47,685 nt of DNA, taken from the IMG/VR virus record IMGVR_UViG_2541047696_000007, one strand, 5' to 3'. The translations under genes and the position numbers were made by a program. Within the stretch, counting starts at the first letter, position 1; every line of letters begins with the position of its first letter. Below are positions 36,150 through 40,997 of the stretch, piece after piece. The notes under the pieces are model-generated. The model ran no database searches and had not been told where the DNA came from. It was given only the letters and a program-made list of their open reading frames with translations. Source of the stretch: a virus. Lineage: Duplodnaviria > Heunggongvirae > Uroviricota > Caudoviricetes.

Positions 36150-36181
36150 TGAAAATAAAAACAAAAACCCGCCGAAGCGGG
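36150..36181 (-). terminator. rho-independent terminator downstream of hok
   Basis: Minus-strand CCCGC-TTCG-GCGGG hairpin followed by TTTTTGTTTTTATTTTC. Confidence 0.55.
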
Positions 36182-36251
36182 TTAAGTGCGGGTGCGTTGA
36201 GGATGCCTGCCACATCAGAGGTGGCGAGGGATTTCTCCCTCGCCGGGTCTC

Positions 36252-36407
36252 TTACTCCTCAGGTTCGTAAGCTGTGAAGACAGCGACCTCCGTCTGGCCG
36301 GTTCGGATTCGTACCTCGCAGAGGTCTTTCCTCGTTACCAGTGCCGTCACTATGACGGTTAAACAGATGACGATCAGGGCGATTAACATCGCCTTTTGCT
36401 GCTTCAT
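36252..36407 (-). CDS. hokD: Hok-family type I toxin
   Basis: 51-aa product MKQQKAMLIALIVICLTVIVTALVTRKDLCEVRIRTGQTEVAVFTAYEPEE, canonical Hok with a single TM helix. Confidence 0.85.
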   Translation of the reverse strand: MKQQKAMLIALIVICLTVIVTALVTRKDLCEVRIRTGQTEVAVFTAYEPEE

Positions 36408-36464
36408 AGCCTGCTTCTCCTTGCCTTTCGGCTCGTAAGAGGCTAACCTACATGTGTCTAGCAT
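36252..36464 (-). CDS. mok: Mok-like overlapping reading frame (translational coupling to hok)
   Basis: 70-aa ORF in the same frame extending upstream of hok, as in hok/mok/sok loci. Confidence 0.5.
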   Translation of the reverse strand: MLDTCRLASYEPKGKEKQAMKQQKAMLIALIVICLTVIVTALVTRKDLCEVRIRTGQTEVAVFTAYEPEE

Positions 36465-36495
36465 GAAATTGGCCTCAGATTAATGTTAAGCGTCT
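36425..36495 (+). ncRNA. sok: putative Sok antisense RNA (position inferred)
   Basis: Inferred only from the conserved architecture of hok/sok loci (antisense to the mok start region); boundaries not determined from sequence. Confidence 0.3.
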
Positions 36496-37081
36496 TGCAG
36501 GACGCGTAATGTTAACTGGGGCTTTTCTCTATCTGCCTTTGGTGTTCATGCCCGAGGCAGATAGCCTCAAGCACCCGCAGCCATTCTACTTAACTACCGT
36601 TACCTCGCCAATATGAAATCAGTCAGAAAGGCGATCCATAAGAACAATAGCAAGACAATAAATCGCCATTACAGCCGTAATAGCCAGCGCACATTTGAGA
36701 ACCAGCACCACAACCTCCTGTATTGGACGTAGACCAGTCCTGATGAATATGAGGCTGTCTCGTCAGTGATTCAATACAACTATTGGGTATAGTTTCTCTG
36801 ATTTTTTCTGTGGAAATGGGGCACAACCACTAGTCACCACCAGCACTTCTTTTAATACGCAAAGTCCGACACAAGCTAACCTTCTAGTCCGCTTTGAGCG
36901 AAAAACAGCCATAATTTAGTGCCACGTATATAATGATAGAGCTATTCAAGCTAGCAATTCACATGTAAAAATTCAGAGGGTAGAAGCACATAGTTATAAA
37001 TGTTGGCTCCATCGACAAATTGCGGTCTCAAGTACATTTATTAATGTTGCCCCCGCATTAACAAATCATCAAGGTGACGAC

Positions 37082-38869
37082 ATGGACGATATTAATATCA
37101 GCCTCGACGAACTTAACACTATTGATTTATCCCCCTTAATCCAGAGTAAGCTGCCAGTTACCTGCTTTGATATCACAAAGTATCTTTCTAGCCTAGGTGA
37201 TGGAAGAGCGGAGATAAGACTGCTAACCCATATTTGCGGTTTTCACTTTCGTCCCGAAAATCCACAGGTACCATTTGGTCCGTGCTTTCAAAGCAGCCAA
37301 GGTAGATCTGCAATTCCGGATGACATTAACGGGTTGTCGCTGGAGGTACTTTCTCAATTTTGCCCGACGATAGAGCTACCCGAACTTCAAGCTCGTATTG
37401 CTGATACACTTTGGGTTCGTAAAATTGGTGGAATCCGTTTTCCTTTGCTGGCAGTCCGTGCTTATTATGCGTCCAGTATAGCTATTATGACATCGCAAGG
37501 GACGTGGGTTAGTGCTTTAGAACGCCTAGAGCGTGCGCTTAGGCTGTGTTGTTTTTTTCGAAAGAATACTGATTTCAGGGATGAATTTGATCAGCTTTCG
37601 GCACATCTACTAGCAGAGTATGAACGTACCAGAGAACAAGGCGATTCACCTTATCCGCTGCGACTCCTGCAACTCGATATCGACTGTAAAGTGAGTGAGC
37701 CATCTTTTATTGCCCAGGAACTCCTGTTTCTGACAAAAAACTATCTGGCTCAAAAATTATTTTCATTTGCCGTCGATGCCTGTAAAACCGCAATCACGAT
37801 TGCGAATAGGTGCTGTGACAGAGATACACAGTTTGAATTCTGGCGGCTTCTTGCCGATACACATCTGGAAGAGTCAAAATTCCAAGATGGCGGTATGATT
37901 TCGGCAGCCTGCATGCAGAATGCTATTGAAGCACTGGCTAATATTCCAGGAACCCGAATAGAACGTCTTGCGCTGTATGAAGAAATGCGTGATTACCAAA
38001 TCGAATCCCGTCACCAGATGTCTATCCTTCAGTCTCCCCCTCAAGATATTAGTGAGATTGTCCATCAAGCCAAGAGTCGGGTAGTCGGAAGAGATATGTT
38101 TGATATGGTTTTCAGACTTGCGATGCTGGTCTGTCGGCCAACCAGCATTGAGAGACTTAAGGCTCAAGCAATAGAACAAAAGGCCAACAGCATAGCTTGG
38201 ATGTTTGGATCAACACATATTGATCATGAGGGAATGACACTTGCTCGCATACCCGCAGGATTGGGGATTGATGATGCAAATGGGGCAGTTATTTGGCCCA
38301 TAATGATGACGAGAATGCGTATCGACCATGAGTTGGCAGTAGCTGGGCAAATTATTCCTGCTACAGATGAGATCACAATGAAATATCCAATCTCGGAGGC
38401 GTTTTTTCGCGATATGTTCATCAATCATCCCTTCATCCCGTTTGGGCATGAAGAGTTTTTCATCAAGGGTATGGTTTGCGGTTTCAATGGAGATTTTATG
38501 ACGGCATGCCACGTGTTGATTCCCCAGATCGAAAATAGTCTGAGATATGTGGCTAAAATTAAAGGTGAGGAACCATCGCAGCTTCACGGGGACGGTTCGC
38601 AAGAGCGAAATGGACTCAAGGGATTACTAGATAATCCACTGATTATTGAAGCTTTCGGCGTAGACATAATTGGCAATCTTCAGGCCTTACTGGTAGATAA
38701 AATCTATGGTGATTTACGAAATCAACTAGCTCACGGATATGTGCCTGCCGGTTACTACAATCAACCTCCCTGCATTTTTGCATGGTGGCTTGTATTGCAC
38801 ATTCTAATGAACCCTACGGCGAGATACTGGCAAGCCACTTATGGCCAAGAGAGTGAGGCTCAGACTTAA
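37082..38869 (+). CDS. 595-aa protein with C-terminal HEPN-type R-x4-H-x-Y motif; candidate abortive-infection/RNase defence effector
   Basis: Long ORF on the strand opposite to flanking phage genes; AAGGTGA Shine-Dalgarno 4 nt upstream of ATG; motif DLRNQLAHGY encoded at 38711-38740; sits where K-12 Qin carries relBE. Confidence 0.7.
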   Translation: MDDINISLDELNTIDLSPLIQSKLPVTCFDITKYLSSLGDGRAEIRLLTHICGFHFRPENPQVPFGPCFQSSQGRSAIPDDINGLSLEVLSQFCPTIELPELQARIADTLWVRKIGGIRFPLLAVRAYYASSIAIMTSQGTWVSALERLERALRLCCFFRKNTDFRDEFDQLSAHLLAEYERTREQGDSPYPLRLLQLDIDCKVSEPSFIAQELLFLTKNYLAQKLFSFAVDACKTAITIANRCCDRDTQFEFWRLLADTHLEESKFQDGGMISAACMQNAIEALANIPGTRIERLALYEEMRDYQIESRHQMSILQSPPQDISEIVHQAKSRVVGRDMFDMVFRLAMLVCRPTSIERLKAQAIEQKANSIAWMFGSTHIDHEGMTLARIPAGLGIDDANGAVIWPIMMTRMRIDHELAVAGQIIPATDEITMKYPISEAFFRDMFINHPFIPFGHEEFFIKGMVCGFNGDFMTACHVLIPQIENSLRYVAKIKGEEPSQLHGDGSQERNGLKGLLDNPLIIEAFGVDIIGNLQALLVDKIYGDLRNQLAHGYVPAGYYNQPPCIFAWWLVLHILMNPTARYWQATYGQESEAQT

Positions 38870-39087
38870 AGTGAATAAGTTTACGAAGTTGGCACTTCCG
38901 GATGCATGTCCATATGAGTTGAGGCGATTTGGTTAATAAGGTTGAGTGCTGCTGAAATTATTCGATGTCCGCTTTTGGCACAAAGCGGACAACCACGCCA
39001 GATCTACCCTGTGCCATGAAAAATGAGAATGTCAATTCACTCCTGAACTAATGCTTTTTAATCTAGTAACGTCTAAAATACCTAACA

Positions 39088-39489
39088 TTATCCCTGATAA
39101 AATGCCAGTATGCGCTGCATAACTTCACTCATCCGGCACTCGCGACAGATTATGTTTAGGCGACTGTCGTAGCGACGTATTTCTCCATCAGGTAACGACC
39201 AGATAAGGTCCGGATCAACCACAGCTGTTTTCTTCACCTTTGCCCTCGAGAGTTTTTTGCGGGCGTTTTGCCAGTCCTTACGCGCCTGTTCAGACGGGAA
39301 TAACCCGTAGCCGGAGTTGTATACATCGCCACTGGCTACCAGCTCTCTGGCAAGAACGCTCATCAGATATCTAGTCGCACCTGTTTTAGCTTCCAGTTGC
39401 CGTAACGTCTCACGACCGCTCTGGCGCACGAGTTCCACCACCTGCCCTTTAATTTTTTCCCGCTCTTCTTGTGTAAAAACTTTTGCCAC
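39088..39489 (-). CDS. hypothetical protein downstream of replication gene
   Basis: 133-aa ORF following the O-like gene; no family recognised. Confidence 0.4.
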   Translation of the reverse strand: MAKVFTQEEREKIKGQVVELVRQSGRETLRQLEAKTGATRYLMSVLARELVASGDVYNSGYGLFPSEQARKDWQNARKKLSRAKVKKTAVVDPDLIWSLPDGEIRRYDSRLNIICRECRMSEVMQRILAFYQG

Positions 39490-40549: not shown

Positions 40550-40997
40550 TTGCTTTTTCTATAAGTTCGTCAGTTTCACGATCCACTACGGCAGGATCAG
40601 CAAAAAGCAGTCCGGACTCCACCACATCGCCATATTCTTTGTTTAACCCGGCGATCATGTACGTGATGCTTTTTCCGTCACTAATTTCACGATACAACCT
40701 GAAATCATTAATCCGGATAGCCTCCATAATTGCAGGCACTAGCGCCGTGAACTTTTCACGCTTATCCCTGGTGTCGATAGCCTTCCAGCGTTCGAATATC
40801 TTCACTCGATTAACGCCAAGCGCTCGCTGATCAACCGCGCCACCTTCATCTGTGACACGCTGAACATCGATGTTCGGGCGCTCTTTCAAAGCCCAGAATG
40901 CTTCAGTGATTAATATCGTCGCCTGCTCCTGTGTCATTCCTGGTCGACATATCCAGGCATCCAGAGCCTCACGAGCCTGTTCAGGAGTGATTTTCAT
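40476..40997 (-). CDS. YdaT-like protein (CII-analogue regulator candidate)
   Basis: 173-aa ORF directly downstream of the Cro-like dicC; segments such as REKFTALVPAIMEAI resemble recalled Rac YdaT (REKIQKLIPAILAIL). Confidence 0.45.
   Translation of the reverse strand: MKITPEQAREALDAWICRPGMTQEQATILITEAFWALKERPNIDVQRVTDEGGAVDQRALGVNRVKIFERWKAIDTRDKREKFTALVPAIMEAIRINDFRLYREISDGKSITYMIAGLNKEYGDVVESGLLFADPAVVDRETDELIEKAIAFKLAYRQQYQQKAGWNYEPSFC

Follow-up and report, generated by a model that had tools for sequence, protein, structure and literature searches.

A DUF4209-family HEPN protein in an exchangeable prophage slot as a candidate one-protein defence effector

The question raised by this locus is what a single gene does when it runs against all of its neighbours in a lambdoid prophage. 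The DNA analysed, called the window, is the whole of the IMG/VR virus record IMGVR_UViG_2541047696_000007 (Caudoviricetes; 47,685 nucleotides), and the gene is an open reading frame (ORF) of 595 amino acids (aa) on its plus strand. An initial annotation, made from the letters alone, had placed this ORF at 37082-38869, opposite to the surrounding genes, and had read it as a candidate single-protein defence effector with a HEPN ribonuclease (RNase) motif. The position and the orientation were confirmed by the ORF list and the sequence. The defence-effector interpretation is supported, as every computationally testable part of it held; the function itself is a predicted one. The family, the conserved residues, the mobility of the gene and the competing explanations of its role are described below.

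Family, architecture and conserved residues of the protein

The family membership of the 595-aa protein was analysed using profile searches. The RefSeq entry for the protein is WP_000340970.1, with the product name 'DUF4209 domain-containing protein'. Pfam gave a match to DUF7380 over residues 4-166 (2.1e-34) and a match to DUF4209 (PF13910) over residues 484-573, the latter scoring 34.0 bits with the whole protein and 36.2 bits with the domain alone at a cut-off of 22.3. PDC-S39 was the only match in PADLOC (PDLC05012, 8.4e-103, residues 43-581; PDLC05011, 2.6e-102). The NCBIfam search of the protein returned no match, the two PHROGs families that matched are both of unknown function, and the profile search against the PDB sequences found no related solved structure. 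DUF4209 was placed in the HEPN superfamily by Anantharaman et al. in 2013 as the 'C6orf70' (ERMARD) family, which has a conserved Rx4-6H, fusions to TPR repeats and more bacterial than eukaryotic members, is found in operons related to restriction-modification (RM), and was scored as catalytically competent (PMC3710099). The fusion to TPR-type repeats, a feature of the bacterial DUF4209 members, is present in the 595-aa protein. By every feature testable here, the ORF is assigned to the HEPN superfamily, the DUF4209/C6orf70 family and PADLOC PDC-S39.

These results also settle what the initial annotation had said of the family. It had recognised nothing in the N-terminal ~500 aa, which is corrected by the DUF7380 match and the TPR-like repeats found there. 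Its guess that the protein might belong to an already named HEPN family was right with regard to DUF4209/C6orf70 and PDC-S39 and wrong in its example, ApeA, as the C-terminal domain gave no HEPN_Apea match in Pfam even at E<=10 and PADLOC gave PDC-S39 only.

The structure of the protein was predicted with AlphaFold2 from an alignment of 42 sequences, and the predicted structures are monomers. The model is confident (predicted local distance difference test score, pLDDT, 90.2) and nearly all helical. The predicted architecture starts with DUF7380 at the N-terminus, continues through a TPR-like solenoid and a helical linker, and ends in the HEPN domain. In the model, the C-terminal domain is an all-alpha up-and-down helical bundle that is superposable on solved HEPN domains, with the R-x4-H motif located on the helix 545-551, so the HEPN fold around R546/H551 for which a structure prediction had been proposed was obtained. 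The best structural matches of this domain are of the HepT/MntA type (7ae2, 5yep and 8xdj).

The conservation of the motif was examined in two sets of homologues. The first set comprised 42 sequences with identity down to 25%, while the second comprised 132 sequences, 131 of them further ones, taken from an exhaustive search through 1.84 billion cluster representatives and mostly 22-27% identical to the window protein. The peptide DLRNQLAHGY with R546 and H551 is encoded at 38711-38740, as had been noted. An R-x4-H arrangement is expected ~0.9 times in shuffles of the same composition and the protein holds two, at R411 and R546, so the motif alone is not beyond chance and the significance of R546/H551 comes from conservation and fold only. 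R546, H551 and G552 are invariant in 42/42 homologues of the first set; in the second set only four columns are invariant, namely D108, R151, R546 and H551, and G552 is conserved in at least 90% of the sequences. The second conserved block showed Q482, E484, S486 and R488 invariant among the 42, and Q482, E484 and R488 at least 90% conserved among the 132. The strict invariance of R546/H551 in 132 sequences at ~25% identity, together with the conserved Q-x-E-N-S-x-R helix, argues for a maintained active site. The initial annotation had called R-x4-H-x-Y the hallmark of HEPN RNases; the R/H part of that claim stood, and the tyrosine did not. Position 553 is Y in 22 of the 42 homologues, L in 14, F in 5 and R in 1, and judged from this alignment the 'x-Y' is not a family feature. 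Position 547 is N in 37 and H in 5.

The individual regions of the protein differ in their rate of change. Against the clade of ~47% identity, residues 1-83 are ~26% identical, residues 84-312 ~38%, residues 313-456 ~50-63% and the HEPN domain ~60%, the C-terminal half as a whole being at 50-64%. Over all 42 sequences the identity rises from 24% at residues 1-83, the least conserved part of the protein, to 50% in the HEPN domain. On these sequence comparisons the N-terminal DUF7380/TPR-like half is fast-evolving and the C-terminal HEPN half is conserved, and single-chain immune sensors are usually built in this way, with a rapidly changing repeat region fused to a conserved nuclease. The sole invariant columns besides the HEPN R/H dyad, D108 (37403-37405) and R151 (37532-37534), lie in the DUF7380/TPR region, D108 within DUF7380 and R151 in the next helix; the two residues could be joined in a salt bridge or act as a latch between domains.

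A mobile cassette in an exchangeable slot

The location of the gene was compared with related prophages. Over 23 kb the window is 99.996% identical to a prophage of E. coli 118UI adjoining rspAB/ynfA, which is the Qin site. The gene order of Qin in K-12 is hokD-relE-relB-ydfV-flxA...dicC, in accordance with the statement of the initial annotation that relBE occupies this place there, and the homology between the window and K-12 is lost at 36421 and regained at 40718. The slot between hok/sok and the DUF977 gene (36577-36888 and 38991-39087 in the window) is a point of cargo exchange. Many E. coli, O157:H7 among them, have QueH (epoxyqueuosine reductase) in it, and on plasmid pDCE7-1 it is filled by a 195-aa orphan gene that has no Pfam or PADLOC match and is flanked by DNA 98% identical to that of the window; relBE is the cargo of the equivalent slot in K-12. 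The placement in an accessory locus is thus borne out by the exchange of cargo, and the 595-aa gene is a prophage accessory gene (moron) in an exchangeable slot. The hokD of the window (36252-36576, minus strand) has a complete sok/mok regulatory region; in K-12 (L002:5120-5275) the homology reaches no further than 14 nt upstream of the start codon of hokD, and relE is directly next.

The extent of the mobile unit was revealed by plasmids. Conjugative IncF plasmids of Klebsiella encode a 97% identical protein, and the DNA homology between the Klebsiella plasmid pMSB1_8A and the window is limited to 36889-38990, at 96.6% identity. The gene is a discrete 2.1-kb cassette moving between prophages and Klebsiella plasmids. 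On the Klebsiella plasmids its neighbours are a group II intron together with an IS110 element and an antirestriction gene; in pMSB1_8A (IncFIB/IncFII) the cassette lies between the reverse transcriptase of the group II intron and the IS110 transposase, near antirestriction, ssb and ParB-like genes, a set typically found in the leading region of a plasmid.

The distribution of the gene was then surveyed among 5,426 complete E. coli genomes, of which 152 carry it; all copies are chromosomal and at least 99% identical, and the gene is absent from 97% of the genomes. The reference strain ATCC 25922 is among the carriers (99.8% identity). In ~80% of the carriers the 595-aa reading frame is unbroken and shows an identity of at least 99%. 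Among 60 copies sampled evenly, ~11 (~18%) are disrupted by insertion sequences (IS3/IS1203) or by truncation. In the strains listed as H135, H151, H152, H1 and H127/H131/H132/H155/H157, some copies are cut by IS3/IS1203 or IS4, and others are annotated merely as 'DUF7380' though the whole gene is covered at 99.7-100% identity, so they probably contain frameshifts. The family as a whole comprises 7,334 cluster representatives at 50% identity with the ~600-aa architecture conserved, and ranges over bacteria, archaeal plasmids, P2-like and lambdoid prophages and conjugative plasmids.

The neighbourhoods of homologues were searched for a partner gene, and none is conserved across the prophage, plasmid and chromosomal-island contexts examined, which agrees with the statement of the initial annotation that no partner is evident. 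The homologue of Enterobacter kobei is within a prophage, between Q and the holin gene, that of Citrobacter is at a prophage edge, that of Pseudomonas is in a small chromosomal island, and that of Vibrio cholerae lies between tauE and carB. In Aliivibrio fischeri the homologue has a type I RM system on one side and a PDC-S06 AAA_13 ATPase on the other, and the Chlorohelix plasmid copy adjoins a DNA methyltransferase gene. With regard to the RM context known for the family, these two homologues adjoin RM or methyltransferase genes and the window locus itself is a prophage slot. The Aliivibrio fischeri ATPase has 771 aa (L022:9854-12169) and matches the PADLOC candidate PDC-S06 at 1.3e-168, with weaker similarity to PrrC, and the type I RM system contains three embedded genes. 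The ORFs of ~160 aa that lie downstream of the homologues in Vibrio and Aeromonas were rejected as partners, being mutually unrelated and absent from the window. A recurrent partner is known for the cyanobacterial homologues only (Nostoc and Trichocoleus), where a PIN-domain ORF of 140-144 aa overlaps the stop codon by 4 nt (L020:9938-10372 and L015:9926-10348). This ORF is specific to the cyanobacterial clade and was rejected as a general partner of the family; it suggests a clade-specific two-gene version of the system.

The sequence around the gene was also analysed, and its features are summarized in Table 1. The genes on both flanks are on the minus strand: hokD/sok, rem, ydfU and the Q antiterminator to the left, and the DUF977 gene, the replication protein, YdaT and Cro to the right. 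The ribosome-binding site AAGGTGA was found as claimed. A complete sok RNA lies at 36402-36576 (Rfam RF01794, 116 bits), and from its end a non-coding gap of 505 bp leads to the ATG. The ~480-bp upstream region described as AT-rich does exist in this form, and is only mildly AT-rich, since its GC content is 41.8%, the ORF having 44.7% and the window 49.2%. Between 36400 and 39200, five sigma-70-like promoter consensus sites were found with 6.2 expected in shuffles, and none lies in 36889-37081; in the same scan no canonical terminator consensus was detected around the gene, the result being no better than shuffles. A hairpin of 9-10 bp at ~38967-38991 closes the downstream stretch; it has no U-tract and is stable when either strand is folded. 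The Rfam search over the region gave only sok and a sub-threshold isrK-like match, with nothing in the 192-nt upstream stretch. The latter match, to the Hfq-binding small RNA isrK, is at 36162-36243 (minus strand) just downstream of hokD and scored 25.7 bits (E=0.011) with a gathering score of 50. Between sok and the cassette, a TTG-started ORF of 67 aa at 36623-36826 (minus strand) has a Cys/Gly-rich C-terminus (...GGCGAGSQMCAGYYGCNGDLLSCYCSYGSPF), contains a terminator-like hairpin at 36684-36665 (minus strand) and has no annotation in any matching RefSeq genome.

Table 1. Coordinates of the features of the 595-aa gene in the window
Feature	Position	Strand	Basis
Protein-coding gene, 595 aa, ATG start, WP_000340970.1	37082..38869	+	ORF list, sequence, identical annotated RefSeq locus
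Shine-Dalgarno-like AAGGTGA, 4 nt 5' of the ATG	37071..37077	+	Direct reading of the sequence
Residues 1-166, DUF7380: small N-terminal subdomain and first repeat helices	37082..37579	+	Pfam 2.1e-34
Residues ~84-312, TPR-like alpha-helical solenoid, putative sensor/interaction domain	37331..38017	+	
Residues ~457-594, predicted HEPN domain	38450..38863	+	Pfam DUF4209, residues 484-573
R546-N-Q-L-A-H551, R-x4-H motif, predicted catalytic dyad	38717..38734	+	Invariant in homologues
Q482-I-E-N-S-L-R488, second conserved block, first long HEPN helix	38525..38545	+	Homologue alignments
Upstream stretch moving together with the gene, 192-193 nt, 38.9% GC, presumed promoter and 5' untranslated region	36889..37081	+	Plasmid homology starts at 36889
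Downstream stretch moving together with the gene, 121 nt	38870..38990	+	Plasmid homology stops at 38990

Proposed function and competing explanations

With moderate confidence, it is proposed that the gene encodes a one-protein abortive-infection/defence effector of the DUF7380-TPR-HEPN (PDC-S39) family. The proposal draws on the fold, the invariant dyad, the asymmetry of the two halves, the mobility of the gene and the defence-type contexts observed in this analysis, the contexts being the PDC-S39 match, the Aliivibrio RM locus, the P2 hotspot described below and the Enterobacter and Citrobacter prophage positions. The DefensePredictor log-odds of a 595-aa E. coli DUF4209 protein, given below, is above the strict cut-off and also counts in its favour. 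By analogy with HepS, DS-11 and HEC-08, a scheme of expression, oligomerisation, trigger and RNA target may be outlined. Transcription in the lysogen would start within the upstream region of the gene and run counter to the phage operons, and the protein would be auto-inhibited at rest. The TPR/DUF7380 sensor would be bound or perturbed by a component of the infecting phage, and two HEPN domains would thereby be joined into an active composite site; as there is a single HEPN domain per chain, homo-oligomerisation would be required, as in other HEPN RNases. RNA (tRNA, mRNA or rRNA) would then be cut, translation would halt and phage production would be aborted. The specificity is probably narrow. 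A tentative extension, possible rather than probable, is that PDC-S39 is a genuine widespread single-protein immune sensor in which the DUF7380/TPR half around D108/R151 recognises a specific phage protein and releases the HEPN RNase.

The protein was compared with the named systems. The likeness to PDC-S39 with its DUF7380 and DUF4209 domains is full, covering the size (~600 aa), the single gene and the occurrence in mobile elements and defence loci, and the ORF is taken as a member. C6orf70/ERMARD shares the DUF4209 HEPN domain with Rx4-6H, the bacterial versions being fused to TPR repeats and found in RM operons (PMC3710099); the eukaryotic members, in contrast, are endoplasmic reticulum (ER)-membrane proteins with a transmembrane segment and a predicted role in RNA degradation, whereas the window protein is a soluble prophage accessory protein, and the link to human ERMARD rests on the shared Pfam family DUF4209. 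HepS of the Salmonella prophage Gifsy-1 (Sargen et al. 2026, PMC13043305) is likewise a single HEPN protein encoded by a prophage, its gene occupying a lambdoid accessory slot close to the replication genes. It acts by abortive infection without a partner gene, its R-x4-H is essential, and it is a tetramer that directly senses the tail-tip protein J; its homologues were limited by the authors to proteins of <250 aa with no extra domains (PMC13043305). The window protein differs in having 595 aa with a large DUF7380/TPR N-terminal region, so membership in HepS was rejected on architecture; by analogy, it probably acts as HepS does, with a large dedicated sensor region in addition. DS-11 (CBS and HEPN), HEC-08 (DUF3644 HEPN and zinc ribbons) and ApeA are validated single-protein HEPN defences in which mutation of Rx4-6H abolishes defence. 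They resemble the window protein in the fusion of a sensor or regulatory domain to a HEPN RNase and differ in HEPN subfamily and accessory domains, HEPN_Apea, DUF3644 and CBS being unmatched in it. HepT/MntA, a type VII toxin-antitoxin system, provides the best structural matches of the C-terminal domain and shares R-x4-H, but it depends on an MNT nucleotidyltransferase antitoxin encoded next to the toxin and on a conserved Tyr, neither of which is present here; membership was rejected, as the neighbours are hok/sok and the DUF977 gene and Y553 is found in 22/42 only. RelBE of the K-12 Qin prophage is an RNA-targeting toxin module in the equivalent slot beside hokD, but it is unrelated in sequence, consists of two genes and lies on the opposite strand.

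The family has been noticed before in a phage hotspot. The gpA-gpQ locus of P2 is a defence hotspot described by Rousset et al. 2022 (PMC9122126), and in a P2-like phage a full-length family member was found between gpA and gpQ (PDC-S39 8.5e-85, DUF7380 and DUF4209). It is their hotspot system #13 'DUF4209', the 13th most common, with 193 loci, and the same protein is their construct pFR103, 'Putative HEPN' (PMC9122126). Like the window protein, it is a single-gene PDC-S39 protein in a phage accessory hotspot and has DUF7380, DUF4209 and the LIPQxE...R and R-x4-H-G motifs. It differs in being ~23-24% identical, with tblastn aligning the C-terminal half only, in having 643 aa in the phage record (the version in the tables of Rousset et al. 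starts at an internal Met), and in coming from a P2-like and not a lambdoid phage.

Prediction pipelines have flagged the family as well. The PDC systems are 145 untested candidates defined by embedding in BREX, DISARM or type I RM loci, and PDC-S39 is a computational candidate of this guilt-by-embedding kind. DefensePredictor labels two E. coli DUF4209 proteins as 'predicted novel defense gene', one of 602 aa with a log-odds of 7.4 and one of 595 aa, WP_021514655.1, with a log-odds of 4.3 at a strict cut-off of 4; the latter agrees with the window protein in length, species and product name, its identity by sequence being unconfirmed. The DefensePredictor table also gives an HHblits match to AbiJ with 67% probability over 19% of the query, and no AbiJ match was obtained here in PADLOC or Pfam. 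The literature search on DUF4209 and C6orf70 gave the 2013 paper only, PDC-S39 was named only in genome inventories, the supplements of the PDC preprint do not mention PDC-S39 or DUF4209, and the search on DUF7380, WP_000340970 and ERMARD with HEPN found nothing. The idea is not new. The HEPN assignment was published in 2013 and the family has been flagged by two prediction pipelines; family and defence hypothesis alike can be found in publications and annotation pipelines, and the gene is a still uncharacterised member.

Several points weigh against the defence proposal. The construct pFR103, carried with its native promoter and challenged with 8 coliphages, is listed in Table S2B (additional tested) and not in Table S2A (validated) (PMC9122126), and the literature gave no other experimental data and no published phenotype for any family member. 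Both E. coli DUF4209 proteins are absent from the DefensePredictor tables of cloned or validated units, and the score of the 595-aa form is barely above the cut-off. The promoter and terminator consensus is absent around the gene. The ~11/60 disrupted copies fit a costly defence gene and equally neutral decay, and RNase activity, oligomerisation and trigger are all taken over by analogy. Three of these points hold the confidence at a moderate level: the pFR103 construct was negative, the score from DefensePredictor is borderline and no promoter is recognisable. The negative result of the P2-hotspot relative on a small panel would be explained by a narrow trigger range.

The main competing explanation, judged unlikely, is that the protein serves mobile elements as a selfish toxin for stabilisation or competition. 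The HEPN RNase would then penalise loss of the element or hit competing plasmids or prophages rather than act as a dedicated anti-phage protein, under control of an unrecognised antitoxin (RNA or small peptide) or of intramolecular inhibition. The hok/sok neighbour and the K-12 relBE slot do make a toxin-antitoxin neighbourhood, the gene is on conjugative plasmids as well as prophages, the PIN-domain of the overlapping cyanobacterial ORF is typical of toxin-antitoxin systems, and pFR103 has no validated anti-phage phenotype. However, no partner is conserved across contexts, the Vibrio and Aeromonas downstream ORFs being unrelated; merely 192 nt of upstream DNA moves with the gene, and Rfam is empty there; an antitoxin of the MNT type is lacking and the Tyr of the HepT R-x4-H-x-Y is not conserved; and a fast-evolving repeat domain of ~450 aa would be unexpected in a simple addiction toxin. 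It is distinctly unlikely that the gene serves the phage instead of defending the host, as an RNase in induction or lytic growth (host shut-off or transcript processing) or by exclusion of close lambdoid relatives only. In the window it is transcribed against both the early and the late phage operons, which is typical of morons expressed in the lysogen but not of genes for lytic growth. Many homologues lie outside phages, in chromosomal islands, in RM islands and on plasmids. The gene is also dispensable for the phage, because 97% of E. coli genomes lack it and similar prophage regions hold other cargo in the slot. On the other side stand its recurrence in temperate phages (Qin-like, Enterobacter and Citrobacter prophages and P2-like phages) and the pFR103 negative, which came from a small panel by which exclusion limited to close relatives would be missed.

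Some HEPN families are non-catalytic, and the HEPN domain here might be a ligand- or RNA-binding or regulatory module and not an RNase, or the copy might be a functionless remnant in a semi-cryptic prophage. This is in accordance with the disruption of ~18% of the sampled copies and with the absence of a phenotype in the literature. It is nevertheless regarded as very improbable in view of the R546/H551 invariance in 132 sequences with the conserved Q-x-E-N-S-x-R helix, the intact and at least 99% identical frame in ~80% of the carriers, the conserved ~600-aa architecture of the 7,334 cluster representatives, and the scoring of the family as catalytically competent by Anantharaman et al. (PMC3710099). 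The one-protein defence effector is kept as the preferred reading.

Meaning for the family

If the gene is active, a large catalogued family of 7,334 representatives would become a validated defence system, and a second example, after HepS, would be given of a lambdoid prophage carrying a HEPN suicide RNase without blocking itself. The main value of the locus is a tractable entry point to this very large family, as a single gene in a compact 2.1-kb cassette that is present in the reference strain ATCC 25922 and offers four obvious sites for point mutants, D108, R151, R546 and H551. The shared DUF4209 domain is also a possible bridge to the poorly understood eukaryotic protein ERMARD. Since human ERMARD and the HEPN domain of this protein fall into one Pfam family, the E. 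coli trigger and RNA target would, if the reading is true, give the first functional model for the eukaryotic family.

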